Assembly (NCBI GenBank): GCA_009692185.1
Contig: SHZT01000002.1
Coordinates: 33,455-97,454, forward strand
Source: Gemmatimonadota bacterium
GTDB taxonomy: Bacteria; Gemmatimonadota; Gemmatimonadetes; Gemmatimonadales; GWC2-71-9
Length of the DNA: 64,000 nucleotides
Reading direction: 5' to 3'
Shown here piece after piece: positions 12,338 to 54,361 of the stretch (position 1 is the stretch's first letter; every line of letters starts with the position of its first letter). The notes under the pieces are model-generated. The model had not been told where the DNA came from. It saw only the letters and a program-made list of their open reading frames with translations, and did not search any database. The translations under genes were made by a program, and so were the position numbers.

Positions 12338-12340
12338 GGT

Positions 12341-13165: not shown

Positions 13166-13178
13166 CGGCTCGGACGGT

Positions 13179-14096: not shown

Positions 14097-14123
14097 ATCA
14101 GACGGCAAGACGGCCGGGAATGC

Positions 14124-14166: not shown

Positions 14167-14197
14167 ACCGTCCTGAGCGTCGTGACCGTCTCGACCG

Positions 14198-15595: not shown

Positions 15596-15719
15596 CTCTA
15601 CAACCTCCGCGAACTGTTCTTGAGTGAGCATCGCGGGCCGGTCAGCCCGCGCAGAATTCACGCCGAATTTGCAAGATACGACCCGTGACGCCAAGCGGCC
15701 AGCGGGTGTACTGTTGCCC

Positions 15720-17774: not shown

Positions 17775-17782
17775 GATGGGCG

Positions 17783-21976: not shown

Positions 21977-22014
21977 GGCGACGGCGACGACGAGAATGAC
22001 GGGCGAGCGAACGT

Positions 22015-23199: not shown

Positions 23200-23211
23200 G
23201 ATTGGAAGGGG

Positions 23212-32724: not shown

Positions 32725-32788
32725 TGCGGCGGCCACGCCTAACGATAGCCGACGCTCACGCCCGGCACAGTACATTTCCCCTCCTGCA

Positions 32789-38906: not shown

Positions 38907-40015
38907 GCAACCCGGCCCAGACGCCGGTACGCCGCGACCATCTGTCGTCCAATCGCGTCGAACGAGAGGGCCTGCTCGAAATGATGGCGGGCCCGAGTGC
39001 GGAGTTCGGCCCGGTCGCGCCCCGCCCATTCACGAATCACGCGTGCCATGGCGGTGCTGTCACCCGTGGGGACGACCGCGCCGGCGGACCCCTGCCCCGT
39101 GATCGTCCTGAACGACGGAATATCCGTGACGAGGGGCGTGGTGCCGCAGGCCAGCGCCTCGATGACGCCGTACCCGCTGCCTTCCTTGTGACTCGCCTGG
39201 ACCAGGAAGTCAGCGGCGCGGAAATGCTCCTCGATGCCCGGATACGCGACTTCTCCCACCAGGCGGACGCGGTCGCGGATCGCCGGGTCGCCCGCGATAC
39301 GGGCCCGGACTTGTTCCAGGAGGGGCGCGAACCGATAGCACATCCAGAGCCGCACGCCCGGGACGCCGGCTGCGACGGCCGAAACCGCGTCGAGCACCAT
39401 CAGCGGATCCTTGTTCGCGTCCAGGTTCCCCACCCAGAGGAGGCACGGGTCGCCATCTATGCCGGTCGCGCGGCGCGCGGTCGCGACGTCGCCTGGAGCA
39501 AATGGCGTCGAACCCTCGACCACTTCGAACACCGGGAGGTCCGCCCTGAGAACCCCGGCCGCCTTGAAGGCGAGCGCCTGGTCGGTCGCGGTGAACATGA
39601 CGCCGGCCAGCGGCGAAAACCCCCACCCATGGAACCAGCGGCGCCAGAAGCGCCCGGGAACGCCACTCCCGTGATCCTGTGCCACGATGGGGACCGAAGG
39701 AAGCTGCCGCGCGAGCGCACGGAGTTCCGACGGGTATATCAGCCCCTGCCAGTGAATAACGTCAGGCCGAGTGGCGGCGATCTGGTCCCGGAACGCGGGC
39801 AGTTCCACGAACTGGCACGAGACGCCACCAATGGTGTGCACCGCCTCGGTCCACGACGCCTGCACGACCGTCATGTCCACGCCCGCGCGCTGGGCGGCGG
39901 CGGCGCTGGCGCCGAAATCCCGCCAGGCGCGCAGGAGCTCCGCGGGGGCTCGGTGCGCGGGGTCGCGGTAAGTGCTCACCTGTGTGACACGCAGGCGGCT
40001 CGAGGTTGGCGGCAT
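38903..40015 (-). CDS. GT4 glycosyltransferase (GT-B, group 1)
   Basis: ORF 38903..40357 trimmed to MPPTSSRLRVTQVSTY (ATG 40015), because longer starts overlap the divergent gene. The signature is LVQASHKEGSGYGVIEALACGTTPLVTDIPSFRTI. Confidence 0.8.
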   Translation of the reverse strand: MPPTSSRLRVTQVSTYRDPAHRAPAELLRAWRDFGASAAAAQRAGVDMTVVQASWTEAVHTIGGVSCQFVELPAFRDQIAATRPDVIHWQGLIYPSELRALARQLPSVPIVAQDHGSGVPGRFWRRWFHGWGFSPLAGVMFTATDQALAFKAAGVLRADLPVFEVVEGSTPFAPGDVATARRATGIDGDPCLLWVGNLDANKDPLMVLDAVSAVAAGVPGVRLWMCYRFAPLLEQVRARIAGDPAIRDRVRLVGEVAYPGIEEHFRAADFLVQASHKEGSGYGVIEALACGTTPLVTDIPSFRTITGQGSAGAVVPTGDSTAMARVIREWAGRDRAELRTRARHHFEQALSFDAIGRQMVAAYRRLGRVA

Positions 40016-40208
40016 GAGGTCGGAAGGGTGACACGGAAGGCGCGGCAACGTCAATGCGCACCCTCTGGCAAAAGCCCTCCGACGCATTAGGGTTAGTAAG
40101 CCAGTTCTGGTCCGCCCGGCGTCCACGCAGGAAACCCAAGGGAGTCGCACCGTTACCACCGCCGCCCCAGCGCTTGCCCGGCAGACGTACGTCCTGCCCC
40201 GCGACGCC

Positions 40209-41117
40209 ATGACCGTCACTGCCGACGACCCGCGCCTCTTGGCGCTGGCCGACCGGCTATGGCCTGCCGCCGCGGGGGAGACGGGAAGCAGCCTGCCGCC
40301 CATACAGATCGGCCTCCGGGTCGATTCCCCGGGCGCCGCCTTTGAAGGGCGGCTCACGGAGTCGTGGACGGTTCAGCGCGATGCCGTCGAGCTCCGGCTC
40401 GGCAGCCAGCTGAGCGTGACCGCCGATGTTACGAGCGCTTCGATTTCAGGCTGGGTGAGCGCCGACCTGCTGGAACATGACCCGGGCCTGATCGCCCGGC
40501 TGCTGCTCGAAGTCCCCGTCGCCGCCCTGCTGCAACGCCGCGCGTACGCCGCCATCCACGCGGCCGCGATCGCGGGCCCTCGCGGCGCCGTGGTCCTGCG
40601 GGGGGCGCCCGGGTCCGGAAAATCCACGCTGGCCGCCGCCGCTCACCTGGCCGGCATGGACGTCCTCGGCGACGAGAGTGTGCTCGTAGCGAGGGATGAC
40701 CCGGATGAACTCCTGGCGGCCGTGCGGGACCCCACGCTCGAGCCGGACACCGTGCGCCTGCTCAACCTGGACGAACGGCTCTGGCCGGCCACGGAACGTA
40801 TTGGCCCCAAGCAGCGGCTGGATTTATTTGCCTCGGCGAACGCGAACGGCCGGGCCCGGCGGCGGATCGCGACCGTCATACTGGGACCGCGCAGCGGCCC
40901 GGCACGCCTCGACCCCCTCAATGCCGAAACGTTCACGGCGGAGTTCCAGGCCGGGGGCATCCGGGAGGAACTCTGGGCGGACCCCGCGCCTCGCATCGAG
41001 TCAACGTGGTCGCAGAGGGGCGCGTATCGCCTGTCGGGCGCCGGCGATCTCCGCGGGGCCATCACCTTGCTGGCGGCTTTGGTCGGACACACCCCTGAAC
41101 CAGGGAGCCCTGCATGA
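40209..41117 (+). CDS. HPr-kinase-related P-loop protein
   Basis: 302 aa. The central AAIAGPRGAVVLRGAPGSGKSTLAAAAHLAGMDVLGDESVLV resembles the HprK/P C-terminal domain P-loop context. A family-unassigned N-terminal domain of about 130 aa precedes it. Confidence 0.6.
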   Translation: MTVTADDPRLLALADRLWPAAAGETGSSLPPIQIGLRVDSPGAAFEGRLTESWTVQRDAVELRLGSQLSVTADVTSASISGWVSADLLEHDPGLIARLLLEVPVAALLQRRAYAAIHAAAIAGPRGAVVLRGAPGSGKSTLAAAAHLAGMDVLGDESVLVARDDPDELLAAVRDPTLEPDTVRLLNLDERLWPATERIGPKQRLDLFASANANGRARRRIATVILGPRSGPARLDPLNAETFTAEFQAGGIREELWADPAPRIESTWSQRGAYRLSGAGDLRGAITLLAALVGHTPEPGSPA

Positions 41118-42580
41118 ACCCTCTCTCGTCAGAACGCGTCCCGGTCCTGCTGTCGCATTCCTACTACCTCAAGTACGACCCGAAGCAGGTCCGGAAGATG
41201 AAGCCTTATGCCCCGCTTTCGACGTTGATCACCGCGTCGACCCTGCGGGATGCGGGCATGCCGTTGCAGTTATTCGACTCCATGCTGTCAGAGGGCGTTG
41301 AGGAGTTCGTCGACCGGGTTCGCGCGGCGCGGCCCAAGGTGGTCGCGATCTTCGAGGACAACTTCAATTTTCTGACCAAGATGTGCACGACGCGGATGCG
41401 GGACGCCGCGTTCACCATGATTGCCGCCGCGAAGGATGTGGGCGCCCGCGTCGCCGTGAACGGATCGGACGCGACCGACCAGCCGGACGGCTACCTCGCC
41501 GCCGGGGCCGACGCGGTGGTCCTCGGCGAAACCGAACACACGTTTCTCGAGCTGGCACACACGTGGCTCCGCGACGCACAGGCGGACCTCACAGACGTTG
41601 CGGGCCTCGCGCTGGGCGGCCCGACGGGCGCCGAGCCGCGGTTTACACCGCAACGCCGGTCGGTGGGGGACCTCGACGCGCTCCCATTCCCCGCGTGGGA
41701 CCTGATCGACATCGAGCGGTACCGCGAGGCGTGGACAACGGCGCACGGCCGGTTCTCGTGGAATGCCTGCACCTCCCGTGGGTGTCCCTTCGGCTGCAAC
41801 TGGTGCGCCAAGCCCATGTTCGGGCGCCGCTACACCCAGCGCACGCCGGGCAACGTGGCCGAGGAACTGTCACGCCTGGCCCAGGTCGTGCGCCCGGACC
41901 ACCTGTGGTTCGCCGACGACATTTTCGGCCTCACGTCTGCGTGGATCGAGTCGTTCGCCCGTGAAATGGGCCGGCGCCAAGTGAAAATCCCGTTCTCCAT
42001 GCAGTCCCGCGTGGACCTCATGACCCCCACCGGTGTCGAGGCTCTCGCCGCGGCGGGATGCGAAGAGGTCTGGCTCGGCGTCGAGTCCGGCTCGCAGAAG
42101 ATCCTGGACGGCATGAACAAGGGGATGTCGGTGGACGAAGTGGGCGACGCCACCAGCCGGCTCAAGGAGCACGGCATCAAGGCATGCTGGTTCATTCAGC
42201 TGGGGTACTCGGGCGAGAACTGGGACGACGTGCTGGCGACGAGAGACCTGGTGCGCGCCGAGCGTCCCGATGACATCGGCGTGTCCGTGGCATATCCGCT
42301 GCCGGGCACCGTTTTTTACGACCGGGTCCGCGCCGAGTTGTCAGCCAAGGAGAACTGGTCGGACAGTGACGACCTGGCCATGCTGTTCCGCGGCACGTAC
42401 ACCACGGATTTCTACCGGCAGATCCGGGACCTGCTCCACGAGGAGGCTCTGGCGCTCGCGAACGTCCATCCCATGGCCGAATGGCCGTTCGACGCGCGGT
42501 GGGATGCCCTGAAGGACCGGGAAGCAGACCACCGGGCGGAATCTGCGGTGGTGGCGAAGCGGGCAGTGTTGGGGGGATAA
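41114..42580 (+). CDS. B12-binding domain radical SAM protein (rSAM-1)
   Basis: The ATG overlaps the upstream stop (ATGA). The N-terminal B12-like Rossmann is LLSHSYYLKYDPKQVRKMKPYAPLSTL and the cluster motif is CTSRGCPFGCNWCAKP. By eye it belongs to the same subfamily as 49042..50331. Confidence 0.85.
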   Translation: MNPLSSERVPVLLSHSYYLKYDPKQVRKMKPYAPLSTLITASTLRDAGMPLQLFDSMLSEGVEEFVDRVRAARPKVVAIFEDNFNFLTKMCTTRMRDAAFTMIAAAKDVGARVAVNGSDATDQPDGYLAAGADAVVLGETEHTFLELAHTWLRDAQADLTDVAGLALGGPTGAEPRFTPQRRSVGDLDALPFPAWDLIDIERYREAWTTAHGRFSWNACTSRGCPFGCNWCAKPMFGRRYTQRTPGNVAEELSRLAQVVRPDHLWFADDIFGLTSAWIESFAREMGRRQVKIPFSMQSRVDLMTPTGVEALAAAGCEEVWLGVESGSQKILDGMNKGMSVDEVGDATSRLKEHGIKACWFIQLGYSGENWDDVLATRDLVRAERPDDIGVSVAYPLPGTVFYDRVRAELSAKENWSDSDDLAMLFRGTYTTDFYRQIRDLLHEEALALANVHPMAEWPFDARWDALKDREADHRAESAVVAKRAVLGG

Positions 42581-42601
42581 GAACTCACGAAGGAGGCGCT
42601 T

Positions 42602-43504
42602 ATGGCCGTCGCCAACCTACGTACCACCTCGGTCCCAGCCGACCTGGGGCGCAAACCCCGCGACGTCGAGCTCGATCTCTTCGGACTCACCCACACCGGA
42701 AAGGTCCGCAAAGCGAACCAGGACCATTTTCTGGTGTGCACCGTCCACCAGCAGATGGTCGTGCATGGCACCAGCCTCCCGAACACGGATCACCTTCCCC
42801 TTCGCGGCGAGCGGCTGGCAACAATCCTCCTCGTGGCCGACGGCGTCGGGGGCGGACAGGCGGGCGGCGAAGCGAGCCAGGTCGCGGTGGAAGCCGTCAC
42901 CCGGTACGTCACGTCCACCATGCTCTGCGTGCACGCACACACGGGGGTCGCAGAGCAGGACTTCCTCCAGGCGCTCCGGGCAGCGGCCATTGATGCACAC
43001 CAGGCGGTGCGGGCGGTGGGAACGGGCCGGGAGGACACGCGGAGCATGGCGACGACACTCACGCTCGCGATCTTCGTCTGGCCCACCATGTACGTGGTCC
43101 AGGTCGGCGACAGCCGCTGCTACCTCTACATGGACGGCGTTCTGCGCCAGGTGACCCGCGATCAGACCGTGGGGCAGTACATGGTGGACGTGGGAGCGTT
43201 GCCGGCCGAGCGGCTGGCAGAGTCGCCGCTTAATCGAGTGCTATCGAGCGCGATCGGGGGGAGCGAAGCGGAGCCGGTCGTGAGCCGCCACGAACTGAAC
43301 CGCACCGCCCGCGTGCTCCTGTGCAGCGACGGCTTGACCAAGCACGTCTCGAACGACGAGATCACGGAGCGAATCAAGGCGGAAGAGTCTTCGGAGCAAT
43401 TCTGCCGGGCGCTGCTGGACCGGACGCTGGAGCGGGGGGGCAGCGACAATATCACCGTGCTGGCGGGAAGGCTCCAGTCTGCGCCCCACGGGGCCGCGGT
43501 TTGA
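42602..43504 (+). CDS. PP2C family Ser/Thr phosphatase
   Basis: GAAGGAGG lies 6 nt (gcgctt) upstream of the ATG. Motifs are GLTHTGKVRKANQDHF, LLVADGVGGGQAGGEAS, LCSDGL and GGSDNITVL. Confidence 0.88.
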   Translation: MAVANLRTTSVPADLGRKPRDVELDLFGLTHTGKVRKANQDHFLVCTVHQQMVVHGTSLPNTDHLPLRGERLATILLVADGVGGGQAGGEASQVAVEAVTRYVTSTMLCVHAHTGVAEQDFLQALRAAAIDAHQAVRAVGTGREDTRSMATTLTLAIFVWPTMYVVQVGDSRCYLYMDGVLRQVTRDQTVGQYMVDVGALPAERLAESPLNRVLSSAIGGSEAEPVVSRHELNRTARVLLCSDGLTKHVSNDEITERIKAEESSEQFCRALLDRTLERGGSDNITVLAGRLQSAPHGAAV

Positions 43505-43558
43505 CGGGTCGTTGACGGGTCGAGTGTAGCCTTCCGCTCGGCACTCACCCCGGAAGCT

Positions 43559-44119
43559 ATGTTTCCCTCCAGAATGACCGCGCCGCTAACAGCCGCCGAG
43601 CTTGAGCACCTGTCGTTTCCCGACAAGCAGGTAGAACTGATTCGGGGACGGCTCGTGGTGCTCGAACCGCCCAGTTCGTGGCACGGCGCGGTCTCGGTGA
43701 ATCTCAGCACCCAATTGAGCAATTTCGTCCGGCGGCACGCCCTCGGCGTCGTCTTCGGGCAGGATACCGGGTTCAAGATCTTCGCTGATCCCGACACGGT
43801 TCGGGCCGCCGATGTGGCGTTCGTCGCGCGGGAGCGGATGTCCGGATTCCCGCGAAGGGGGTACGCCGCAGTCACGCCGGACCTGGTGGCCGAGGTCCTG
43901 TCGCCGGACGATCGCGCCGGAGAGGTGCTGGCCAAAGTCGCCGATTGGTTGAGAGCGGGGGCGCGAGCGGTGTGGGTCATCGATCCGCAGCGGGCCCAGG
44001 CCCTGGTCTACCGGCCAGACGGAAGCCTCTCGATCGTGGGAGAGCACGATGCGCTGGACGGAGAAGAGATACTGCCCGGCTTTTCCTGCTTGCTCAGCGA
44101 CATCCTGGCAATCGCGTAG
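43559..44119 (+). CDS. Uma2 family (DUF820) endonuclease
   Basis: 186 aa with VELIRGRLVVLEPPSSWHGAVSVNL, VRAADVAFV and PDLVAEVLSPDD. It uses noticeably more A/T-ending codons than its neighbours. Confidence 0.8.
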   Translation: MFPSRMTAPLTAAELEHLSFPDKQVELIRGRLVVLEPPSSWHGAVSVNLSTQLSNFVRRHALGVVFGQDTGFKIFADPDTVRAADVAFVARERMSGFPRRGYAAVTPDLVAEVLSPDDRAGEVLAKVADWLRAGARAVWVIDPQRAQALVYRPDGSLSIVGEHDALDGEEILPGFSCLLSDILAIA

Positions 44120-44180
44120 AGGCCCGACAACCGAGCCGTCCCGGTCTCAAGGGCGGGCCCGGCCCGCACCCTCACCACAG

Positions 44181-44207
44181 TCCCCTCTCCCGAACCGGGA
44201 GAGGGGA
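44181..44207. repeat. perfect 10-11 bp GC hairpin (REP-like) between convergent genes
   Basis: CCCCTCTCCC (44182-44191) pairs with GGGAGAGGGG (44197-44206) around a 5-nt loop. There is no T-run on either side. Confidence 0.6.
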
Positions 44208-44262
44208 ACGGCATCAGATCTCGACCGAGCCCGTGCTTGAGCCGAGGACCAAAACGCGCGGC

Positions 44263-44554
44263 TCAGGGCTCCTTGCCGCCGCCTGCCGCGCGTGGCCCGG
44301 CCGAGAACAGGTTCTGCACGAGGATCAGATCCGGCGCCTCGTCACCACCCAGTTTTACAAAGACGAAATGCTGGCCGTCGGGGTGGACGTCGTAGGCCGC
44401 GAGGGTTCCGCTTGTCCGGTATGGCGCTACGAACAACGGCGTCCGATTGCCTACCGCAAACGCGGGTTGCGTGCGGACCTGAGCCGCAAACAACGTGCCC
44501 GCCTGCCGATAAAAGAGCTCCCGGCGGCGGCGTTGAGTCGTTCGGTGTTGCCGG
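44263..44554 (-). pseudogene. 3'-terminal remnant of a PD40/TolB-like beta-propeller gene
   Basis: The frame reads ...ELFYRQAGTLFAAQVRTQPAFAVGNRTPLFVAPYRTSGTLAAYDVHPDGQHFVFVKLGGDEAPDLILVQNLF, the typical last blades of PD40 propeller proteins. It has no N-terminal part or proper start, and its upstream end runs into the vapC stop. Confidence 0.5.
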
Positions 44555-44968
44555 TCACGTCCTGAATCCCTCGCGCACCGCCGCCTCGCGCAACCGGTCG
44601 TCGAACGTCACGAACTCCCCCTCGGGTGGCGCACCGGCCCACTCGAGCGCGGCCGCCAGCTGGAGCGCATCGGCCGCCCGCAGCGCATGCACGCGCAGCA
44701 ACCGCAGGGCCTGCTCGCGCACCACGTCACCGGGCTGCACTTCAAACCAGCTCTTGCGAAGCGTGTCGAGCAACGACCGGGCATCGCGCTCGGCGGACGA
44801 CGTGAGCTGATCCTCGCGGCGCATGCGGGCGATGGCCGACGCGCATGCAACGGCGCTGCCCCACCAGACCACGAGTTCGTCGTCCTCCTTGAGCAACCCT
44901 CGCGCCTCGCTGGTGCGCGGCTGCTGGAGCACGAGCGGCACGAGCGCGGAAGAATCCCAGAACTTCAC
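44555..44968 (-). CDS. vapC: type II toxin, PIN domain (VapC-like)
   Basis: 137 aa starting MKFWDSSALVPLV, with RAADALQLAAAL and FVTFDDRL. The GTG start overlaps the antitoxin stop. Confidence 0.85.
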   Translation of the reverse strand: MKFWDSSALVPLVLQQPRTSEARGLLKEDDELVVWWGSAVACASAIARMRREDQLTSSAERDARSLLDTLRKSWFEVQPGDVVREQALRLLRVHALRAADALQLAAALEWAGAPPEGEFVTFDDRLREAAVREGFRT

Positions 44969-45258
44969 CAGCCCGACTCCCGTTCGGCGAGGAGCGCCGT
45001 GAGGCCCCGGCCCTTCGGGTCCGCCGGGCGCTTCCGGTCCCAGAAGCCCTTGGGCAGCCTGGCGCGCGGGGCGCGGAGGCGCCCGGTGCGAATCATTTCC
45101 TCGCGGCGCCCCTCGACGAACTGCGCGCCCGTCACCGGCGCCAGCCGGGCGATGGGACGCCCGCGATCCGTCACCAGCACTTCATCGCCGCGACGGACGA
45201 TCTCGAGAAAGGCGCTGAGCCGCGCCTTGAGGGCTGACACCGATGCGGTCTTTATCAT
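44965..45258 (-). CDS. type II antitoxin, Phd/YefM family
   Basis: 97 aa starting MIKTASVSALKARLSAFLEIVRRGDEVLVTDRGRPIARLAPV. Confidence 0.85.
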   Translation of the reverse strand: MIKTASVSALKARLSAFLEIVRRGDEVLVTDRGRPIARLAPVTGAQFVEGRREEMIRTGRLRAPRARLPKGFWDRKRPADPKGRGLTALLAERESGW

Positions 45259-45293
45259 ATGACCATAATAGTCATGTCAAATGAAGCGGCCAA
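45259..45293 (-). promoter_or_regulatory. putative TA promoter/operator (leaderless layout)
   Basis: The minus strand reads TTGGCC (45293-45288), a 17-nt spacer, TATTAT (45270-45265), 6 nt, then ATG (45258). The inverted repeat ATGAC-N7-GTCAT (45259-45275) brackets the -10. Confidence 0.4.
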
Positions 45294-45334
45294 CACTCGA
45301 TGCGGGGCAGGACGCCGTACCGTGGGGCGAAGCA

Positions 45335-46750
45335 TCAGGACATGGTCGCGACCGGCCTCAGCCGCTCCGACACGAACTTCTCCAGTGGGAAGCCGTAGGC
45401 ATCATTCCGGCACCGCCACCGGGCAATCGCCTGTGCCGGACGTTTCCACAGCGGCACGCGGTCCCACGCCAGGCGCTGGTAGAACTTGAACCGCTCCACC
45501 CGCTGGAACTTGGCCCCAGTCACCCACGGCCCGGCCGACCCGATGAAATCGAAATTGGCCCACTCGTCGAGCGACTGCGGCAACCGGTAGCCCTGGTTCA
45601 CCGCGTCCTGCGTGATGGCTGACCCGGGGTACGGCTTGAAATAGAAAATGTGCGTCTCGAAGTCGGGGCTCATGGCGCGGAGCCGCTTGGCGAGGGAGAA
45701 CGATGCCGCGACACTCTCGTCGTCCTCTCCCGGGAATCCCACGATGAACGGGAACTGGACTCGCAGTCCCAGGACCCGGCACCGTTCCGCCGTGATCATG
45801 ATCTGTTCGATCGTCACATCCTTGGCGATCCGCTTGAGCATTTCGGGTGAGCCTGATTCAACGCCCACCAGCACCCGCCGGAGCCCCGACCGCTTGGCCG
45901 TCTGGAGCACGTCGTCCGGCATTCGGGCGCACTGGTCCGCCCGCATGGTGGCCGCCCAGCTGATCGGCAGCTTCCGGCGAATGAACTCCTCCGCGATCGC
46001 CACGACGCGGGGCGCCTGGGTGAAGAACGTCTCGTCCTGAAAATTGACGTCGGTGAAGTGGTACTGTCGCCACCACGTTTCGATTTCCTGCCCGATGCGT
46101 TCGGGGGCGAGCCCCACCCAACCCCTCTTATAGACGAACGGATCCGCGCAGAACGCACAGCGGAACCGGCACCCCTGCGAGGCGATGTAGTCGAGTTGCG
46201 GCTTGCCCTTGAGCGCGTAGAAGCGATCAACCGGGATCAGTGAATAGTCGTGGGGCCGGAACGTGTTGATGTCCGCCAGCGGGCGGGGCGGGTTCTCGAT
46301 CGGGGAGCGGCCAATGTCGCGATAAGTCGTCCCGAGGCAACCCTCCAGCGAGTCTCCCCGCTCCAGCCGCTCGACCACCTCGAGGAACGTGGCTTCGCCC
46401 TGCGCCTGCACGGTGATATCCACGCTCGGCTCTTCGAGACACTCGGTCCCGAACATGGAAGGGTGCCAGCCGCCCCACACGATGGGGAGGTCCGGCCGCA
46501 TCGCCTTCACCGCACGGGACATACGAACGGCGTCCCGGATCGGCAGGCCGGTCAGCACGGTGACCCCGACGCAGATCGCCCCATCGAGATGGGCCCGAAT
46601 CGCCGCCTCCGGGTCCTGCTCGATTCGGCCATCCACGATGACCACGTCGTAGCGCTCGCGCGGGAGGTGCGACCCCAGCGCGATGAGCGCGAGCGGCATG
46701 GTATAAAAGTCCACGCGCGGATTGTAGAGGACCACCTTCGGGCGGGTCAT
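45335..46750 (-). CDS. B12-binding domain radical SAM protein (rSAM-2)
   Basis: ORF 45335..47422 trimmed to MTRPKVVLYNPRVDFYTMPLALIALGS (ATG 46750, ATGA overlap with the upstream stop). The cluster motif is IASQGCRFRCAFCADP, and a DUF4070-like tail follows. Confidence 0.85.
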   Translation of the reverse strand: MTRPKVVLYNPRVDFYTMPLALIALGSHLPRERYDVVIVDGRIEQDPEAAIRAHLDGAICVGVTVLTGLPIRDAVRMSRAVKAMRPDLPIVWGGWHPSMFGTECLEEPSVDITVQAQGEATFLEVVERLERGDSLEGCLGTTYRDIGRSPIENPPRPLADINTFRPHDYSLIPVDRFYALKGKPQLDYIASQGCRFRCAFCADPFVYKRGWVGLAPERIGQEIETWWRQYHFTDVNFQDETFFTQAPRVVAIAEEFIRRKLPISWAATMRADQCARMPDDVLQTAKRSGLRRVLVGVESGSPEMLKRIAKDVTIEQIMITAERCRVLGLRVQFPFIVGFPGEDDESVAASFSLAKRLRAMSPDFETHIFYFKPYPGSAITQDAVNQGYRLPQSLDEWANFDFIGSAGPWVTGAKFQRVERFKFYQRLAWDRVPLWKRPAQAIARWRCRNDAYGFPLEKFVSERLRPVATMS

Positions 46751-47520
46751 CGCCGCACGAACTCCAGCTGATAGTGATCTGCCAGCCACGGCAGGGGCGG
46801 CACGGTTTCGATCGCCCGTTCCCACCGCACCAGGGTCTCCGTGACCGCCGGGTGCCGCCTGGCCCACGCCTCGGCGTAGGGCGGCGGCACGATCGCCCCG
46901 ATGGCCCCCGCGCGCACAAAACGGAACGTGTGGCCGAACACCCGCCGCAGGGTCCCGATGGTGGGATACCGGACCGTCATTCCCCGCCACTCCACACCGC
47001 CCCGCCGGAGCCGCCGAAGCGCCTTCCCGGGCTGCCCGCGCAACATGTACCAGGCCCACTCCCACGGAACGACCGGACCCATGATTCCGAGGACGAGCCG
47101 CGCCTGCGGGCGGAGCCGTTCCGCCAATCGGTCCACGACTGTCGCCATCTGCGGAACAAGGTTCAGGGCGCCGAAGCTCGAAAACGCGCCATCGAATTTT
47201 CCCGCCAGCTCGCCGATGTGCTCCGCATCCACCTGAAGGGCGGTGACCATGCCGCTCAATCCCGCAGCGGCTGACTTTGCGCGCGTCGCCTCGATCATGG
47301 CGGCCGACGGATCCGTGGCCACGACCCGAACGCCCCGATGCGCGAGGTGGATCGCATCTTCCCCGGTGCCGCAGCCGATTTCCAGCACCTGCTGGCCCGG
47401 TTCGAACGCCTGGTCGAGCCACGCCCAGGTCGCTTCCCGGTACACCCGGCCCAGCACCGAGTCGGTAAACACGGCGTCATAGGACTTGGCCAGCGCATCG
47501 AACGCGGACACGGCATTCAC
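46747..47520 (-). CDS. class I SAM-dependent methyltransferase (MT-1)
   Basis: 257 aa with a GTG start and motif I VLEIGCGTGEDAIHLA. Confidence 0.8.
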   Translation of the reverse strand: MNAVSAFDALAKSYDAVFTDSVLGRVYREATWAWLDQAFEPGQQVLEIGCGTGEDAIHLAHRGVRVVATDPSAAMIEATRAKSAAAGLSGMVTALQVDAEHIGELAGKFDGAFSSFGALNLVPQMATVVDRLAERLRPQARLVLGIMGPVVPWEWAWYMLRGQPGKALRRLRRGGVEWRGMTVRYPTIGTLRRVFGHTFRFVRAGAIGAIVPPPYAEAWARRHPAVTETLVRWERAIETVPPLPWLADHYQLEFVRR

Positions 47521-47558
47521 GCGCGAAAGCTATACTGTATCCTTCGCCTGACGAACCC
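47521..47558. promoter_or_regulatory. 38-bp divergent control region with overlapping -10-like boxes
   Basis: TATACT (47531-47536, plus strand) overlaps TATAGC (rc of 47529-47534, minus strand). The core ATAC-T-GTAT palindrome is at 47532-47540. The minus-strand box sits 8 nt from the GTG at 47520. Confidence 0.35.
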
Positions 47559-48377
47559 ATGCCGACCACAGCAATTTCGCCCGACCGCCTCGCGCGCTTC
47601 CGCGCGGCCTACGCGCTGCATCGCGAGGCCGAGGGCCGCCGCTTGGACCCAACCGACCTGGCGGCCCTGCCCTACCTGGATCACGGCCCGTTCCGGCGTG
47701 AATGGTCGGTCCGCGCCCGGACCTTCGAGGCGCTGGTTCACAACGTGGTCACGCCCCTGGCGAAGGGGGCCTCCCTCCGGATCCTCGACGTCGGGGCCGG
47801 CGCCGGATGGCTGTGCTTCCGGCTGATACGAGCCGGGCACCACGCGATCGCACTGGACTGGCGATGGGACCAGGTGGACGGCCTCGGCGCCGCCCAGGGT
47901 TACCGGGTGCACCTCCAGCATAGAGACTTGTTTGATCGCGTGGGCGCCTCGTTCGACGCCCTGCCGCTGTCCGCTCAGGCGTTCGACGTCGTCGTCTTCA
48001 ACGCCGCCATTCACTATGCTGAGGACCTGGCACCCGTGTTGGCTGAGGCGCGTCGCGTGGTGCGGCCGGGCGGGCGCATCGCCATCCTGGATTCGCCGTT
48101 CTACGCCCGCGCCGCCGATGGCGACCGCATGGTCGCGGCAAAGCGCCGCGAAGGCGCGCGGGTCTTCGGCAAGCACGCGGAAGCCTTGATGGCGCTGCGG
48201 CCCATTGAGTACCTCACGACGAAACGGCTCGCGGACGCTTCGGCGCCGCTGGGGCTCACCTGGCAGCGCCATCACGTGCGGTATCCCCTGTGGTACGAAC
48301 TGCGGCCGCTGGCTGCGCTTCTGTCCGGGCGGCGCCGGCCATCCCGCTTCGATCTCTGGGTAGGAGTGGTTTCGTGA
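47559..48377 (+). CDS. class I SAM-dependent methyltransferase (MT-2)
   Basis: 272 aa with motif [16 protein letters not shown], then [12 protein letters not shown] and PGGRIAILD. Confidence 0.8.
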
Positions 48378-49045
48378 AGCGTCCCCAGGCGGCCTTCGAG
48401 CCCTTGCCGGACTATCGTGAGTACCCGGCGCCGGAGATGGAGTCGCGTGCCCGCGCGTTTGCCGCAGACATGCAGCGCCGCCGCACGACCCGTCACTTCA
48501 GTGACCGGCCGGTGCCGCGCGCGGTGATCGAAGCCTGTCTCGAGACCGCGGGGTCCGCGCCGAGCGGGGCGAACCAGCAACCTTGGCACTTCGTGGTCGT
48601 TTCCGAGCCTACGCTCAAGCGCGGGATTCGGGAGGCGGCCGAGCAGGCCGAAGCGGAGTTCTACGCGAAGGCGCCGGCGGAGTGGCTGGAGGCGCTGGCC
48701 CCCCTGGGCACCGACGCGCGCAAGCCATACCTCGAGACGGCGCCCTACCTCATTGCCGTTTTCGCCCAGCGCTTTGCCCCCTCACCGTCCGGCAAGCGGC
48801 GGACGCACTACTACGTGAACGAGTCCGTCGGCATCGCGACCGGTTTTCTGCTGGCCGCCCTTCATTACGCCGGTCTGGCCACGCTCACCCACACCCCGAG
48901 CCCCATGGGGTTCTTGAACGATCTTCTGGGCCGGCCGGCCAACGAGAAGGCGGTCATGCTGGTCGTCACCGGATACCCGGCGCCGGACGCCAGGGTGCCC
49001 CGCATCCGTCGCAAGACCCTGGACGAGATCGTCACGTTTCGGTGA
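48374..49045 (+). CDS. nitroreductase-superfamily flavoprotein, iodotyrosine-deiodinase-like
   Basis: GTG at 48374 overlaps the upstream stop (GTGA). The sequence [45 protein letters not shown] ... [30 protein letters not shown] closely follows the bacterial IYD pattern as I remember it. Confidence 0.7.
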
Positions 49046-50331
49046 CCGACCTCCTGCTCACGCACGGGTATTTCCTCTCGGAAGACGAGCACGAGCGGAA
49101 GGTGATGAAGCCCTACCCGCCGCTGGGCCTCCTCTACATCGCCGGGTACCTCAAGCGGGCCGGGATGACCGTCGAGGTCTTTGATTCGACATTCGCTCCC
49201 CGCGCCGATCTCGAGTCGAGGCTCGCGACCGGGCCGGCCGGGGCACTCGGCATCTACACCAACCTGACCACGCGGAAATCCGTCCTCGACATTGTGCGCC
49301 GCGCCAAGGCCAGTGGGTGGACCGTGGTTCTCGGCGGACCGGAGTCGGCCAACTACTCCGCGGAATACCTGCAGCACGGCGCCGACGTGGTGGTGTTCGG
49401 CGAGGGGGAGGAGACACTGAAGGAACTGCTCCCCGCGCTTGCGGCCCGCGGGCCTCACCGGCTGCACGGCGTGCTGGGAACGGCGTTCACCGACGACGGC
49501 GGCGCGGTGGTGACCAACCTCGGGCGCCCGCAAATCAAGGACCTGGACGCCCTGCCCTGGCCCGACCGCGAGGCGATCGACACGGCCCGGTACGTAGATG
49601 TGTGGCGGGAGCATCACGGCAAGGGCAGCGTCAACCTCATAACCGCGCGGGGGTGTCCCTACCGGTGCAACTGGTGCTCGCACGCCGTGTTCGGGTTCAC
49701 TCACCGGCGCCGGAGTGTCATCTCCTGCGCCGACGAGCTGGCGCACATCGTGGAGCGTTACCGGCCGGACCAGGTGTGGTACGCCGACGACGTGTTCACC
49801 ATTCACCATCGCTGGCTCTTCGACTACGCGGCCGAGCTCGAGCGCCGGCATCTCCGTATTCCGTTCGAGACGATTTCCCGCGCGGACCGCATGCTGAAGG
49901 ACGACGTGGTGAAAACGCTGGCGGACATGGGGTGCTGGCGCATCTGGATCGGGGCCGAGAGCGGCAGCCAGCGGATACTCGACGCGATGCAGCGGGGCGT
50001 GACGGTCGAGCAGGTACTTCACGCTACCCGTTCCGCACAGCAGCACGGCATCCATGTCGGGATGTTTCTCATGTGGGGCTACGACGGCGAGACCGAGGCG
50101 GACATCGACGCCACCATTGATCTCGTCCGCCGCGCCGCGCCGGACGTGGCACTGACGACCGTCGCCTACCCCATCAAGGGAACCGGCTTCTTCGACCGTC
50201 TGGGCGACCGGGTGGGCGCCACGAAGGACTGGGCCGACGCGACCGATCGCGATTACGAGGTACGGGGCCAGCGGTCGCGGGATTTCTATCGGGAAGCAGA
50301 CCGCCGCTTGCGGCAGGCGATCGGGCGGTGA
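49042..50331 (+). CDS. B12-binding domain radical SAM protein (rSAM-3)
   Basis: GTG at 49042 overlaps the upstream stop (GTGA). Motifs are [34 protein letters not shown] and the cluster [16 protein letters not shown]. Confidence 0.85.
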
Positions 50332-50771
50332 TGCGCCGCGTGGTGGGCATGATCTACGTCAGCCTGGTCGCCTACTGCGTGCTCTGGGGCCTCGTCTTTC
50401 TCCGTTCCCCGTTGCTGTCGTTCCAGTCACCTGACATCGACGTGCCCTGGCTGCTCCGCCTGGGAGAGTTCGGCGGGGTTGTCCTCCTCGTGGCCGGCAT
50501 CGCGTCGGCGACCCTGTTCCGGCACGACCCGCTCGCATCCCACCTCGCCTGGCTTGGCGTGACGTTGATGGGAGTCATGGCGATGACTATCATGGGCGCC
50601 GGAGTCCTGTTCGTGGCGTGGTGGCTGGACTGGGAACCAGCTGCGTTCGCGGCAATGGCGTGCTGGGGGCTGGCTGGCCTGTGGTCCCTTGCGCGCCTGT
50701 TGTTCGGGTTCGCGCGTTTTCTCGCCGGCCACTCCGTCAGCCGCTGGCCGTTGCGGGCTCCCGCGGCGTAG
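50328..50771 (+). CDS. hypothetical 4-TM membrane protein
   Basis: 147 aa. The GTG overlaps the upstream stop (GTGA). It has four hydrophobic segments and is Trp-rich (VAWWLDWEPAAFAAMACWGLAGLW). No family recognised. Confidence 0.6.
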   Translation: MMRRVVGMIYVSLVAYCVLWGLVFLRSPLLSFQSPDIDVPWLLRLGEFGGVVLLVAGIASATLFRHDPLASHLAWLGVTLMGVMAMTIMGAGVLFVAWWLDWEPAAFAAMACWGLAGLWSLARLLFGFARFLAGHSVSRWPLRAPAA

Positions 50772-51384
50772 CGCCCTCGGTGCGTGGCTTGGCGGATTTG
50801 GGCGCGCGTCGCCGGAGCCGCAGGGCCAGAAGGCCGACCAGGATGAACGCGAACGTGATCGGCTCCCGCGTATCCTTCTTCACGAGCCACAGAAAATGCA
50901 GGACGCCCAGCGCCCCGGAGACATAGACCAGCCGGTGCAGAGCACCCCACCGTCTTCCCAGTTTCCGGATCATGAACCCGTTTGATGTCGCGGCGAGCGG
51001 CACCAGCAGGGTCACCGCCACGAAGCCCACGGTGATCCACGGCCGCTTGAGGATGTCCTTGGTGATTTCGGACCAGGCGAAGAACTGGTCTATGCCGATG
51101 TAGTTGCTGAAATGGAGCATCGCGTAGAAGAACGCGAACAGGCCCAGCATGCGCCGCAACTTGATTACGTCGTTCCAGCCGGGGATACGGCGGAGCGGAG
51201 TCACGCACAGCGTGATCATCAGGAAGGTCAACGCCCACCAGCCGGTGCGCAGCTGGATTTCCCGAATCGGCTCGGCGCCCAGGCCGCCGTGGAATCCCTG
51301 CCACGCGATCAACCCCGCCGGCACGAGCGCCGCGGCGAACACCGCAGGCTCGGCAACGAAACGGATGAACTGGGAGCGGGTCAT
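50737..51384 (-). CDS. msrQ: protein-methionine-sulfoxide reductase heme-binding subunit
   Basis: 215 aa with a ferric-reductase-like 6-TM topology and conserved His residues (FYAMLHFSNY, ALHRLVY). It lies directly downstream of msrP. Confidence 0.85.
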   Translation of the reverse strand: MTRSQFIRFVAEPAVFAAALVPAGLIAWQGFHGGLGAEPIREIQLRTGWWALTFLMITLCVTPLRRIPGWNDVIKLRRMLGLFAFFYAMLHFSNYIGIDQFFAWSEITKDILKRPWITVGFVAVTLLVPLAATSNGFMIRKLGRRWGALHRLVYVSGALGVLHFLWLVKKDTREPITFAFILVGLLALRLRRRAPKSAKPRTEGATPREPATASG

Positions 51385-51386
51385 TG

Positions 51387-51442
51387 GCGGATGAGCGGAT
51401 GAGCGGATGAGTCTGGCGGGTTACGTATCCGCCCATCCGCTC
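51387..51442. repeat. 8-nt-periodic palindromic element, copy 2
   Basis: GCGGATGA occurs three times (51387-51410). After a 16-nt spacer comes the inverted copy ATCCGCCCATCCGCTC (51427-51442), which is complementary at 15 of 16 positions. It fills the msrP-msrQ spacer. Confidence 0.85.
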
Positions 51443-52383
51443 TAGTACAGCGTCCGGGGATCCATTCCCTTGTACATCGCCGCCACCTGCTCGCCGAACC
51501 CGTTGAACGGCAGAGTCGGGCGTTTGAGGAACTCGCCCACCCGGCGCTCGCGCGCCTGGCTCCAGCGGGGGTGGTCCACCGCGGGGTTCACATTGGCGTA
51601 GAAGCTGTACTCGCTGGGCGCGGCCAGCTGCCACGTGTTGAGCGGCTGCGTCTCGACGAAGCGCACCTTGACGATCGACTTGATGCCCTTGAAACCATAC
51701 TTCCAGGGAATCACGAGCCGGATCGGCGCGCCGTTCTGGTTGAGCAGGGGCTTCTGGTAGATGCCCACCGCGAAGAGCGTGAGCGGGTTCATGGCCTCGT
51801 CCATGCGCAGGCCTTCGACGTACGGCCAATCGAGCACCAAGTCACGCTGGCCGGGCATCTGCTTCGGATCCATCAGCGTAGTGAATTCGACGAACTTGGC
51901 CTTCGGGCTCGGTTCGAACCGGTTGATGAAATCCCGGAGCGGGAACCCGTACCATGGAATCACCATGGACCAGGCTTCGACGCACCGGTGCCGGTACACG
52001 TACTCCTTGGCCGGGAACCACTTGAGAATGTCTTCGATGTTGTAGTCGCCCGGCTTCGCCGCCATGCCCTCGACCTTGACCGTCCACGGCCGGGGCTTGA
52101 GCGTGCCCGCGTTCTTTGCCGGCTCGGACTTGTCGGTGCCGAATTCGTAGAAGTTGTTGTAGGTGGTGACGGCCTGGAACGGGGTTTGGGGGTCGTCTTG
52201 TTGGGACGGTTGGGCGGAGAGGCGGTTAGACGGTTCGTGACCAACCGTCCAACCGTCCAACCGCCCAACCGCCAAGCCTGCCGCCGCAACCCCGCCCGCC
52301 GCCATGAATTCCCTGCGATTCAGGAACACCGCCTCCGGCGTAATCTCCGATACCTTGAACTCGTCAGGACGTTTGATCAGCAT
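51442..52383 (-). CDS. msrP: protein-methionine-sulfoxide reductase catalytic subunit (Mo-oxidoreductase)
   Basis: Start set at [27 protein letters not shown] (ATG 52383; the ORF extends to 52422). It has a Tat signal [18 protein letters not shown], plus [15 protein letters not shown] and HRCVEAWSM. Confidence 0.88.
52203..52272. repeat. 8-nt-periodic palindromic element, copy 3 (inside the msrP coding sequence)
   Basis: The plus strand carries CCAACCGT twice then CCAACCGC twice (52241-52272). These face an inverted imperfect copy at 52207-52235, with 24 of 29 positions complementary by my alignment and a 7-nt loop. On the minus strand the unit is GCGGTTGG/ACGGTTGG, i.e. related to GCGGATGA. 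Confidence 0.8.
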
Positions 52384-52501: not shown

Positions 52502-54361
52502 ATGACCGCACCCTACGACGACCTGTTCATCTCGTTCCAGACCGCTCTCGCGGGCCGGTACTCGCTCGAACGCGAGCTCGGCCGCGGCGGTATGGGCATC
52601 GTGTACCTCGCACGCGAGGTGCGACTGGACCGGCCGGTGGCGCTCAAACTGTTCCCGCCCGCCCTCGCCGCCCAGCCCAACCTCCGCGAGCGCTTCCTGC
52701 GCGAGGCCCGCACGGCCGCCCGGCTTTCGCATCCCCACATCGTGCAGATCTACACCGTAGACGAGGTGGGTCAGTTCGTCTTCTTCGCCATGGCTTACAT
52801 AGATGGCGAGACGCTGGGCGCGCGGGTCCAGCGACGGGGACCAATGGCCCCGTCCGAAGCCGCGCGCGCGCTCCGCGAAGTGGCGTGGGCGCTGGGGCAC
52901 GCGCACGAGCAGGGCGTCATTCACCGGGACGTGAAGCCGGACAACATCCTGCTCGAGGCCGCGACGGTGCGCGCCATGGTGGCGGACTTCGGCATCGCCG
53001 GGTCGAAACAGGAGGCAGGGTCGCAGACGACGGGTGAAGTGATCGGCACGCCGGAGTTCATGAGCCCCGAGCAGGCGGGCGGCGAGCAGGTGGGCGCCCA
53101 GAGCGACCTCTACTCACTCGGCGTGGTCGCATTCTATGCGCTTTCGGGCCGAGTGCCGTTCACCGGCGCCAAGTCGGCGGACATCCTGGCCAAGCACATG
53201 ACCCAGCCCGCGCCCCCGATCATCGAGCAGGCGCCTTCGACGCCGCGGCGCGTGGCACGGATCGTGGACGCGTGCCTCGCGAAGGACCCGGCGGAGCGGC
53301 CGGCGGGCGCCGCGCTGCTGGCGGAACAATTGGCGCTGGCTATCGAGCATCGGAAGAACCTGCCGGTCGCGCTGCGCGCCTTCGTCAAGCATGACGGGCG
53401 AATCGACGGGCCCGGCGTCATACTGGTTACGCCGCTGCTGGCCGCGGCAGCGGTGGCCGCTGGCAGCGTGTTTGACGCGGTCGGGGCCCTCACAACCTTT
53501 TACGGCGGTGCCGCGTTCATCACGGCCGTAGTCCTGACCGCCCGGGCCCGGAAACTCCTGAAGAGTGGATTCGAGCACGGCGACCTAGCGGTCGCGTACA
53601 AGGCCGAGATCGAACGTGGCAAGGAAGAGCGAGCGTTCAGCGCTGGCTTTTGCCCCTCGACACTCGAGCGCGTAACGAAACTCGGCGGATTTGTGGGCAT
53701 CGGTGGCGGCGCGCTCACGCTGGCGATCGCCGCTTGGCTCGGTCTCGTCGAGCCGGACTGGACCGTGCTCACCGCGGCGGCATGGCTCGGAATGGCCGCC
53801 GGCATGACGTCGACCATCGTCCACTTGGCCCAGTTGCAGCGACGGCGCGACGTCGATACCGAATTCTGGGGTAAACTGTGGACCGGCCGGATCGGGCGGT
53901 TCCTCATCCGGGTCGCCCGCGCCCTGTTGCCCAAGCACGCGATTCCCTCCGCCATGACCCATCGCCCCACCGAGCTGGCTATCGCGATGGCGGCCGAGCA
54001 ACTCTTCGCCGATCTCCCCAAGGCCACGCGGAAACAGCTGGGCGATCTCCCCAACGTCGTGAACCGGCTGGAGGCAGACGCCCAGAAAATGCGCGCGCGG
54101 CTGGAAGAACTTCAGGAACTGGCCGGGGACAGCGCGGAGCTGCGGGGGCTGCGCGACACGGTCCAGAAACGACTCACGGACACCGTCACCGCCCTGGAAA
54201 CAGTCCGGCTCGGCCTCCTCCGGTTGCGGAGCGGCGTCGGCAGTATCGAGTCCATGACGACGGGGCTCGTGGCGGCGCGGGAAGTGGGCGACGCGGTGGA
54301 GCGATTGCTGGCGGGACAGAAGGAGGTGGAGGAAACGCTAAGGCGGGCGACGCCGGTCTAG
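52502..54361 (+). CDS. membrane-anchored Ser/Thr protein kinase (Hanks type)
   Basis: The track start at 52499 is a TTG and an ATG follows at 52502. Motifs are [41 protein letters not shown] and [10 protein letters not shown]. Several TM segments and a coiled-coil-like tail follow. Confidence 0.88.

Follow-up and report, generated by a model that had tools for sequence, protein, structure and literature searches.

The 64,000-nucleotide stretch of Gemmatimonadota DNA analysed here (contig SHZT01000002.1, forward strand, positions 33,455 to 97,454; hereafter the window) originates from a freshwater metagenome, has a G+C content of ~67% and carries at 45335-50771 two divergent operons that encode cobalamin (B12)-binding radical S-adenosylmethionine (SAM) enzymes and conventional methyltransferases. 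Comparison with related loci supports the view that the three B12-type radical SAM (rSAM) genes of this neighbourhood, rSAM-1, rSAM-2 and rSAM-3, form with the methyltransferase gene MT-1, and often with MT-2, one functional unit that is co-conserved across phyla. Its core consists of a P-loop protein, rSAM-1, rSAM-3 and MT-1. Other members vary with the lineage: rSAM-2 or a fourth B12-rSAM, MT-2 and a HemK-like methyltransferase, a SPASM radical SAM enzyme and an amidohydrolase, an NTP_transf_5 protein and two GT4 glycosyltransferases. Only this lineage has added a deiodinase-like (IYD-family) flavoprotein, a protein with four transmembrane segments (4-TM protein), a PP2C phosphatase, a Uma2 endonuclease and a toxin-antitoxin pair. 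The window holds a rearranged, Gemmatimonadota-type copy of a cassette that occurs in at least eight phyla and is common to many soil and freshwater bacteria. By analogy, the two operons may well constitute the right-hand part of a ~19-kb system (31816-50771) that assembles and radical-methylates a phospho- or glyco-conjugate, an assignment that should be regarded as tentative.

The distribution of the cassette was obtained from a scan of one genome per species, which yielded 569 related stretches; 80 loci were kept and, together with five other public contigs and the window, make up a set of 86. Gene families were counted by tblastn and then by hidden Markov models (HMMs) of families built in this analysis, and because many of the contigs are only a few kilobases long, all counts are lower bounds. 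The 80 loci belong to Acidobacteriota (37), Pseudomonadota (14), Chloroflexota (10), Gemmatimonadota (7), Actinomycetota (5), Armatimonadota (3), Planctomycetota (2), Entotheonella (1) and an unclassified organism (1), with Candidatus Angelobacter and Chthonomonadaceae placed by NCBI taxonomy and the other phyla by record titles. The rSAM-3 gene is present in all 86 loci, followed by MT-1 (68), rSAM-1 (61), rSAM-2 (34), the P-loop "HprK-like" protein (33), the fourth B12-rSAM (32), and the SPASM radical SAM and HemK-like methyltransferase genes (28 each). Less frequent are GT4a and MT-2 (18 each), NTP_transf_5 (16), GT4b and a family with a weak Flavin_Reduct match (10 each), the amidohydrolase (9), Acetyltransf_9 (7) and PIG-L (6). 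Since the same gene families recur together in the 80 species-representative loci and the five other contigs, the arrangement goes beyond chance.

The gene order reinforces this picture. The usual sequence is rSAM-1, rSAM-3, MT-1 on one strand, with rSAM-1 immediately upstream of rSAM-3 in 42 loci and MT-1 directly downstream of it, on the same strand, in 52; MT-1 may be an obligatory partner of rSAM-3. The most complete version, a single operon of Chthonomonadaceae (Armatimonadota), begins with NTP_transf_5, a cytochrome-c-like gene, the P-loop protein, GT4b, GT4a, rSAM-1, rSAM-3 and MT-1, and continues with the SPASM enzyme, rSAM-2, the HemK-like methyltransferase, one uncharacterised gene and the fourth rSAM. 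A small version in Acidimicrobiia consists of the P-loop protein, rSAM-3, MT-1 and MT-2, with NTP_transf_5, GT4 and rSAM-1 nearby; MT-2 otherwise occurs in Gemmatimonadota, Bryobacterales and Planctomycetota. In three loci of Gemmatimonadales type (L002, L087 and L088), rSAM-2/MT-1 lies immediately beside the P-loop gene and rSAM-1, and rSAM-3 comes next in divergent orientation. These loci lack PP2C, Uma2, the toxin-antitoxin pair, MT-2, IYD and the 4-TM gene. They give a positive answer to a check proposed in a preliminary description of this DNA, namely whether relatives free of the toxin-antitoxin islet keep the kinase-rSAM-1 operon beside the other units. The same description had presented all six genes of 45335-50771 together; co-conservation across phyla holds for the three rSAMs and MT-1, often with MT-2, but not for the IYD and the 4-TM protein. 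The SPASM rSAM, fourth B12-rSAM, HemK-like methyltransferase and amidohydrolase, in turn, were not found elsewhere in the window.

Within the window, all six open reading frames (ORFs) of the segment lie where the preliminary description had placed them, as they also do in a public gene call made independently for this contig. The leftward unit comprises MT-1 (46747-47520, - strand), a class I SAM methyltransferase by Pfam, and rSAM-2 (45335-46750, - strand), a B12-binding radical SAM enzyme of a second subfamily with 56-81% identical orthologues in 34 loci. The rightward unit comprises MT-2 (47559-48377, + strand), likewise a class I SAM methyltransferase, the IYD-family flavoprotein (48374-49045, + strand), recognised by the Pfam Nitroreductase fold and its similarity to solved IYDs, rSAM-3 (49042-50331, + strand), a B12-binding radical SAM enzyme by Pfam and by an AF2 model, and the 4-TM protein (50328/50331-50771, + strand; 146/147 aa). 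The junctions were read directly in the sequence: the rSAM-2/MT-1 overlap at 46747-46750 is TCAT on the + strand and hence ATGA on the - strand, GTGA is found at 48374 (MT-2/IYD) and at 49042 (IYD/rSAM-3), and the rSAM-3/4-TM junction at 50328 reads GTGATG. The overlaps and the 38-bp region described earlier are thus present. A further ATGA, at 41114, couples the kinase-like P-loop gene to rSAM-1.

The 38-bp divergent region between MT-1 and MT-2 (47521-47558) contains the CGAAAGCTATACT box at 47527-47539, which is found in identical form at ~3350-3362 within the MT-1/MT-2 divergent region of locus L086. In the window, this box includes a TATACT -10-like hexamer and an ATACnGTAT palindrome. 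A scan of the 38-bp region with the sigma-70 consensus returned no site, although this consensus may not apply to the phylum. The CGAAAGCTATACT box, kept in two lineages, could be a shared promoter or operator and is best treated as a candidate for either.

The three radical SAM enzymes share the same construction. B12-binding and Radical_SAM domains both exceed the Pfam gathering scores in rSAM-1 (41114-42580, + strand), rSAM-2 and rSAM-3: the N-terminal B12-binding domain (PF02310) scores 36.8, 48.1 and 62.7 bits against 32.1, and Radical_SAM (PF04055) 67-79 bits against 29.5. All carry the CxxxCxxC cluster motif and are minimal proteins of 429-488 aa without an extra recognition domain. Class I methyltransferase domains, the only fold common to the two, are found in MT-1 and MT-2, so that the earlier count of three cobalamin-type rSAMs and two conventional methyltransferases agrees with Pfam. 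The placement of rSAM-3 in the subfamily of rSAM-1, originally made by eye, is upheld by 37% identity across 427 aa (E 5e-94), as opposed to 27% between rSAM-2 and rSAM-3; on sequence grounds, rSAM-1 and rSAM-3 are paralogues and rSAM-2 represents a different subfamily. The most conserved gene of the cassette is rSAM-3, with 64-84% identity to relatives in eight phyla and 64-75% from Actinomycetota to Pseudomonadota. Thousands of relatives are present in the databases, the best 120 of them at 66-84% identity and from several phyla.

The AF2 model of rSAM-3 (pLDDT 88.6) contains an N-terminal domain of Rossmann type and can be superposed on TsrM, MgmA, AprD4, OxsB and TokK with TMq 0.64-0.73. 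It confirms, as a prediction, that the architecture is of class B, while the reaction cannot be read from it. The N-terminal B12-binding Rossmann domain and CxxxCxxC barrel of the cassette enzymes are those of class B members such as TsrM, MgmA, TokK, OxsB, AprD4 and the GenK/Fom3 type; on the other hand, identity to any solved member is only 17-20%, and three to four rSAM paralogues lie within one cassette. A PDB sequence search with rSAM-3 gave distant matches only, the closest solved relative being MgmA (9CCB, 63 bits).

Comparison with curated families links the cassette to no described pathway. None of the cassette or accessory proteins reaches a family cut-off in NCBIfam scans. The best matches of the rSAMs are BchE, HpnJ, ApyD, PhpK, the ladderane-lipid rSAM and MgmA, at 80-140 bits against cut-offs of 360-750. 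Specifically, the rSAMs score 107-114 bits for HpnJ (cut-off 577.6), 64-90 for HpnR (650), 97-139 for BchE (481), 55-85 for the C-methyltransferase TIGR03975 of ribosomally synthesised and post-translationally modified peptides (RiPPs; 282) and 82-124 for ApyD (750). The best match of MT-1 is CpaM, a corrinoid-protein-associated methyltransferase, at 73 bits against 180. The scores, all far below the cut-offs, reveal no orthology to methylases of the hopanoid or bacteriochlorophyll pathways or to known RiPP methylases, which the preliminary description had named as a possible refutation. The literature searched on branched glycerol dialkyl glycerol tetraethers (brGDGTs) and radical SAM, B12-rSAM and HPr kinase, PF14907, and Gemmatimonadota and B12-binding does not describe the cassette.

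The boundaries proposed earlier for the unit prove real but too narrow, because kinase-like, glycosyltransferase, NTP_transf_5 and other sugar-enzyme genes at 31.8-41.1 kb also belong to it. From left to right, this part of the window encodes a GT2 glycosyltransferase at the edge of the system (31816-32775, - strand; Pfam Glycos_transf_2, only generic NCBIfam matches, relatives in four loci), the nucleotidyltransferase-fold NTP_transf_5 protein (PF14907; 32789-34024, + strand; Pfam, and 16 of 86 loci by HMM), a sulfotransferase (34006-34962, + strand; Pfam Sulfotransfer_1/3, also beside the cassette in L088, relatives in 3-4 loci) and a second GT2 glycosyltransferase (34945-35862, - strand; public gene call with Pfam and NCBIfam). 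These are followed on the - strand by GT4a (35859-36968; Pfam Glycos_transf_1, relatives 44-54% identical in 18 loci across phyla), a PIG-L family de-N-acetylase (36965-37861; Pfam 78 bits, six loci, beside the cassette in L087 and L088), an Acetyltransf_9 (GNAT) acyltransferase (37851-38906; Pfam on the public gene call, seven loci) and GT4b (38903-40015; Pfam Glycos_transf_1, ten loci). The system is taken to span ~31.8-50.8 kb because GT4a, GT4b, NTP_transf_5, PIG-L and GNAT recur with the cassette elsewhere, and the combination GT4, PIG-L, GNAT and GT4 adjoins it in the window, L002, L087 and L088. Furthermore, the co-directional Armatimonadota operon (L066, ~2350-20711) holds all parts together, which argues that the sugar enzymes are members rather than mere neighbours.

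The remaining core gene encodes a kinase-like P-loop protein of putative PEPCK/HprK fold (40209-41117, + strand), characterised by its Walker A motif and an AF2 model and translationally coupled to rSAM-1 (ATGA). The Walker A consensus GxxGxGKS appears as GAPGSGKS at residues 132-139; G132, G135, G137, K138 and S139 are invariant in ten sequences from six phyla, and in an alignment of 25 sequences G135 is conserved in at least 90% and the other four residues are invariant. His117 is invariant across phyla. The model (pLDDT 90) matches PEPCK and HprK/P with a Foldseek probability of 1.0 and TM scores of 0.26-0.43, values so low that the match applies at the domain level only. The NCBIfam model HprK_rel_A gives 43 bits against a cut-off of 200, Pfam Hpr_kinase_C does not match, and the only relative passing the latter is that of L048 (39.1 vs 33.3).

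Taken by analogy, these components would fit the following pathway. A cytoplasmic, hydroxyl-bearing acceptor would be phosphorylated by the P-loop protein, and one or more sugars would be added to it by the NTP_transf_5 protein and the GT4/GT2 enzymes. In Gemmatimonadota, an N-acetyl-hexosamine could then be de-N-acetylated by PIG-L and re-acylated by the GNAT enzyme. The three B12-rSAMs would act in succession on unactivated carbons of the glycoconjugate, most likely by cobalamin-mediated C-methylation, with an HpnJ- or AprD4-type rearrangement as an alternative; MT-1 and MT-2 would finally add N- or O-methyl groups.

The combination of enzyme families recalls aminoglycoside pathways. In these, GT4 enzymes, a PIG-L deacetylase, the B12-rSAM C-methylases GenK and GenD1, AprD4 and BtrN act on an amino-sugar scaffold. 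AprD4, which acts on a sugar and is not a methylase, is among the closest folds to rSAM-3, and Acetyltransf_9, the family of the window GNAT, includes Eis. Unlike in those pathways, no 2-deoxy-scyllo-inosose synthase or sugar aminotransferase is seen in the cassette, and its pan-phylum conservation differs from that of an antibiotic cluster.

Several points weigh against a radical-methylated glycoconjugate. Every chemical step is drawn by analogy because no enzyme reaches a curated family cut-off, and methyl transfer and other radical reactions cannot be told apart from the sequence. No polysaccharide export or polymerase genes are seen beside the cassette, and GT4, PIG-L and NTP_transf_5 were detected in a minority of loci, though many contigs are short. 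For HprK-type kinases and NTP_transf_5 proteins, the only substrates known to date are serines of peptides (PMC7533575). The SPASM enzyme is ScmE/ScmF-like, the accessory methyltransferase resembles HemK protein-glutamine methylases, and MgmA, the solved protein whose sequence is nearest to rSAM-3, is itself a protein methylase.

These last observations lead to the principal alternative, in which the P-loop protein would place a phosphate on a serine, either in a ribosomal peptide or in a cellular protein whose gene lies elsewhere. Sugars would then be attached to the phosphate or hydroxyl by NTP_transf_5 and the glycosyltransferases, and the B12-rSAMs would C-methylate side chains in the manner of MgmA, Mmp10 and the proteusin methylases. 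This is considered somewhat unlikely, but it deserves to be taken seriously. In lasso peptides such as paeninodin and pseudomycoidin, HPr-kinase-like, PF14907-like and GT2 genes are tailoring partners acting on the C-terminal serine (PMC7533575), and the cassette clusters the same two families with glycosyltransferases. It differs in having no precursor, cyclase, protease or PqqD gene, and its P-loop protein, for which the window copy gives no Pfam match, is very divergent from solved HprK and PEPCK. A similar partial likeness exists to SynChlorMet (ScmC P-loop protein, ScmE/ScmF SPASM enzymes; TIGR04249-04251), in that the cassette pairs a faintly ScmC-like P-loop protein with an ScmE/ScmF-like SPASM rSAM; however, its scores are 21-75 bits against cut-offs of 125-400, no PqqD homologue is present and the window copy is without the SPASM enzyme. 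Elsewhere, the SPASM rSAM occurs in 28 loci, with ScmE/ScmF and peptide maturases among its best matches, the HemK-like methyltransferase reaches 78.8 bits with the protein-glutamine methylase model (cut-off 87), and rSAM-3 matches the RiPP enzyme ApyD (124 bits) as well as MgmA (105 bits). A conserved protein substrate would also agree with how strongly rSAM-3 is conserved.

The absence of a recognisable peptide argues in the opposite direction. No small ORF is conserved across loci, and the annotated neighbourhoods contain no PqqD or RiPP recognition element (RRE), protease, lasso cyclase or leader-type gene. The rSAMs lack the additional domain by which a peptide could be recognised, and all family scores remain below the cut-offs, by far. 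In search of a hidden precursor, 1,147 intergenic ORFs of 25-120 aa were collected over all loci and clustered, which gave only shadow ORFs and families confined to close relatives, although short divergent precursors could escape BLAST. Inspection by eye of 48 coding-like small ORFs recovered toxin-antitoxin genes and lineage-limited proteins and no PqqD-like gene. A single case in favour is a repetitive, Gly/Ser/Thr-rich ORF of 100 aa in a Thermoanaerobaculia locus (L082:18026-18328, - strand), which stands beside glycosyltransferase, NTP_transf_5 and P-loop genes and could be a serine-rich acceptor.

In the preliminary description, the 4-TM protein was read as a hint of a lipid or envelope-bound substrate. 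Developed further, this proposal has the B12-rSAMs methylating or cyclising the chains or head groups of membrane lipids, for example branched tetraether or hopanoid-like lipids, with the 4-TM protein presenting the substrate. The best NCBIfam match of rSAM-1 and rSAM-2 is HpnJ, and all three rSAMs match the ladderane-lipid B12-rSAM family. Known B12-rSAMs of lipid metabolism include HpnP, HpnR, HpnJ, the glycerol dialkyl glycerol tetraether (GDGT) methylase and ring synthases (PMC13459092). In the hopanoid head-group pathway, a glycosyltransferase (HpnI) is followed by a de-N-acetylase (HpnK) and by a B12-domain rSAM acting on the sugar (HpnJ), and the archaeal calditol synthase is a further precedent for a B12-domain rSAM acting on a sugar (PMC13459092). 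The glycosyltransferase, deacetylase and B12-rSAM of the cassette mirror this order, but the first two come from other families (GT4 and PIG-L), no hopanoid genes lie near the cassette, and the host range is wider than that of hopanoid producers. The hosts are mostly soil Acidobacteriota and similar groups, which would be compatible with a lipid product, and yet the carriers include Altererythrobacter and Roseobacter. To our knowledge, such membrane lipids are not expected in these two genera. The rSAM scores for the lipid families (80-140 bits) are also far from the cut-offs of 360-650, and no squalene-hopene cyclase, tetraether synthase or acyl- or ether-lipid enzyme is found in the annotated neighbourhoods.

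The membrane protein itself gives this proposal little help. Four hydrophobic segments are evident from hydropathy, and the third-codon-position G+C (GC3) of the gene, 0.86, is like that of its neighbours. A Pfam scan of the protein gave no match, only 4-5 relatives were found among 1.84 billion cluster representatives, two metagenome scans for the context of these relatives returned nothing, and the HMM census did not detect it in the other 85 loci. As a near-orphan missing from every other locus, it no longer serves as the lipid-substrate hint it was taken for. With a membrane protein that the other loci do not share and no lipid genes alongside the cassette, lipid chains are a less likely target, and lipid tailoring overall is judged improbable. 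At the position of the 4-TM gene, directly downstream of rSAM-3, Gemmatimonadales relatives carry one or two small lipoproteins (L002:11954-12425, L004:2492-2918, L087:11954-12425 and L088:11473-11691). In these, the lipobox Cys is followed by GPP..PDPxNPMxPMxY, and the sequences are Met-/Pro-rich with a conserved Tyr.

For the IYD gene, the earlier label "IYD-like" is correct because of the IYD scores and the retained Glu/Tyr/Lys triad, and the case is stronger than was stated. The protein aligns end to end with the solved IYD of Haliscomenobacter hydrossis (5KO7; 221 bits, E 1e-64) and scores 174 bits with the mouse and human enzymes, whereas other nitroreductases reach at most 65 bits and BluB 22.6. 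The triad of extension E1, which binds the halotyrosine zwitterion and was used to define the IYD subgroup (PMC8668982), is present as E93, Y97 and K117, in alignment with the bacterial and mouse enzymes; its spacing (4 and 20) equals that of E68/Y72/K92 in TnIYD (PMC8668982), and the THTPSPM stretch is retained as well. The flavoprotein is, as far as sequence can tell, a true member of the IYD family. One public gene call places its start 21 codons downstream (leaving out 48374-48436; 202 aa), but the upstream GTG start overlapping the MT-2 stop is supported because the alignment to the solved bacterial IYD starts at residue 7.

Its membership in the pathway is another matter. The preliminary description had drawn attention to the pairing of an IYD with B12-rSAM enzymes, and an integral role would make it the catalytic partner of these enzymes in a pathway to a halogenated or tyrosine-derived metabolite. 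The GTGA overlaps on both sides place the gene inside the MT-2/rSAM-3 operon, the triad for binding a zwitterion makes a free aromatic amino acid the expected substrate, and the weak Flavin_Reduct-like family in the cassette of ten other loci suggests that a flavoprotein helper may be a recurring need. This pairing is, however, not conserved. According to the HMM census the IYD family is absent from the other 85 loci, including L086, the nearest cassette relative for which context is available, whose rSAM-3 is 79% identical and directly follows MT-2 with no IYD between. IYD homologues at 75-82% identity are abundant, and the four of 78-80% identity whose context was read are all solitary among unrelated genes; the window gene, unlike any of them, lies in a radical SAM operon. 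With 78-82% identity to ordinary Gemmatimonadales IYDs, the sequence also bears no sign of a new function, and an integral catalytic role is very improbable. The IYD appears to have been captured into the MT-2/rSAM-3 operon and to be co-expressed with it, most likely as a halotyrosine dehalogenase incidental to the pathway and at most as a recruited FMN redox partner.

Separate from the IYD, flavin-related genes are seen with the cassette in other lineages. The weak Flavin_Reduct match belongs to a family of ~320 aa (for example L015:3358-4347 and L058:4896-5876), and in the Bryobacterales version a GTP cyclohydrolase II gene (193 bits) lies directly before rSAM-1 (L015:7810-8403). Both may indicate a connection to flavins or pterins in part of the lineages.

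Two further assignments were considered and rejected. An anti-phage defence system was dismissed, as the PADLOC defence models gave nothing specific, only generic methyltransferase and rSAM matches of up to 61 bits. A phosphonate pathway of the Fom3/FomB type, raised by weak FomB and PhpK matches, was discarded because no phosphoenolpyruvate (PEP) mutase occurs in any annotated neighbourhood. A substrate or mechanism outside the four readings, namely a conjugate, a peptide or protein, a membrane lipid or an IYD-dependent metabolite, is judged unlikely.

The right-hand border of the cassette is marked by an MsrQ/MsrP-like pair (Ferric_reduct and Oxidored_molyb; 50737-52383, - strand) and a Ser/Thr kinase (52502-54361), because both also follow rSAM-3 in L086. 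The pair converges on the 4-TM gene, with a 35-bp overlap of the 3' ends. Two sediment metatranscriptomes contain contigs identical or nearly identical to 49639-49867, 50081-50260, 50199-50479 and 50564-50754, those over 50081-50260 and 50199-50479 being identical to the window, and one RNA contig crosses the rSAM-3/4-TM junction. The contigs are few and of low depth, sufficient for RNA over this junction but not for operon definition. This suggests that rSAM-3 and the 4-TM gene are transcribed together in nature, with DNA carry-over as a possible alternative.

Between rSAM-1 and rSAM-2, the window carries the lineage-specific PP2C phosphatase (42602-43504, + strand; Pfam PP2C_2, Stp1-type 174 bits against a cut-off of 230), which neither tblastn nor the HMM census detected in the other 85 loci, and an insert with the Uma2 endonuclease (43559-44119, + strand) and the PIN/PhdYeFM toxin-antitoxin pair (44555-45258, - strand), both assigned by Pfam on the public gene call. 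In L002, L087 and L088 the insert is missing and rSAM-1 abuts rSAM-2. Insertions of different toxin-antitoxin or mobile genes, usually between sub-operons, interrupt the cassette in several other lineages too, as judged by eye from the sequences alone: a PIN gene in L018 (7519-7908), an AbrB-like/Fic-Doc-like pair in L026 (14642-15286), a HEPN/MNT-like pair in L056 (14676-15300) and an RHH-like gene in L021 (9653-9976). In about ten Thermoanaerobaculia loci, Cys-rich proteins of ~1,900 aa with no Pfam match are encoded upstream of the cassette (for example L027:944-6616, L056:2-5848 and L026:30-5936). Further to the left in the window are additional GT2 glycosyltransferases (19779-24735), one of them synthase-like and 874 aa long, several large ORFs without Pfam match (14198-19765) and a sigma-54 activator of the response regulator type (9810-11195); the cassette lies in a glycan-rich part of the genome.

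As a kind, the cassette belongs with the class B radical SAM tailoring clusters, among which it stands out as widespread and well conserved; neither the curated family models nor the literature searched contains a description of it. Few large enzyme groups are as poorly assigned as the B12-dependent radical SAM enzymes. For this system, the focus shifts to the kinase/rSAM-1/rSAM-3/MT-1 core and the sugar enzymes, away from the deiodinase and the membrane protein. The hosts, such as Acidobacteriota, Gemmatimonadota and Chloroflexota, are mostly uncultured, with Altererythrobacter segetis (YJ20, locus L009) as a cultivable carrier. More speculatively, and with some doubt, the cassette might make an undescribed pan-phylum molecule, either a multiply C-methylated envelope phospho-glycoconjugate or a serine-linked phosphoglycan on a conserved protein, built by a dedicated kinase of PEPCK/HprK fold and a PF14907 transferase together with several B12-rSAM paralogues. 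So conserved an rSAM-3 suggests that the product is widespread and physiologically important among abundant bacteria of soil, sediment and freshwater.

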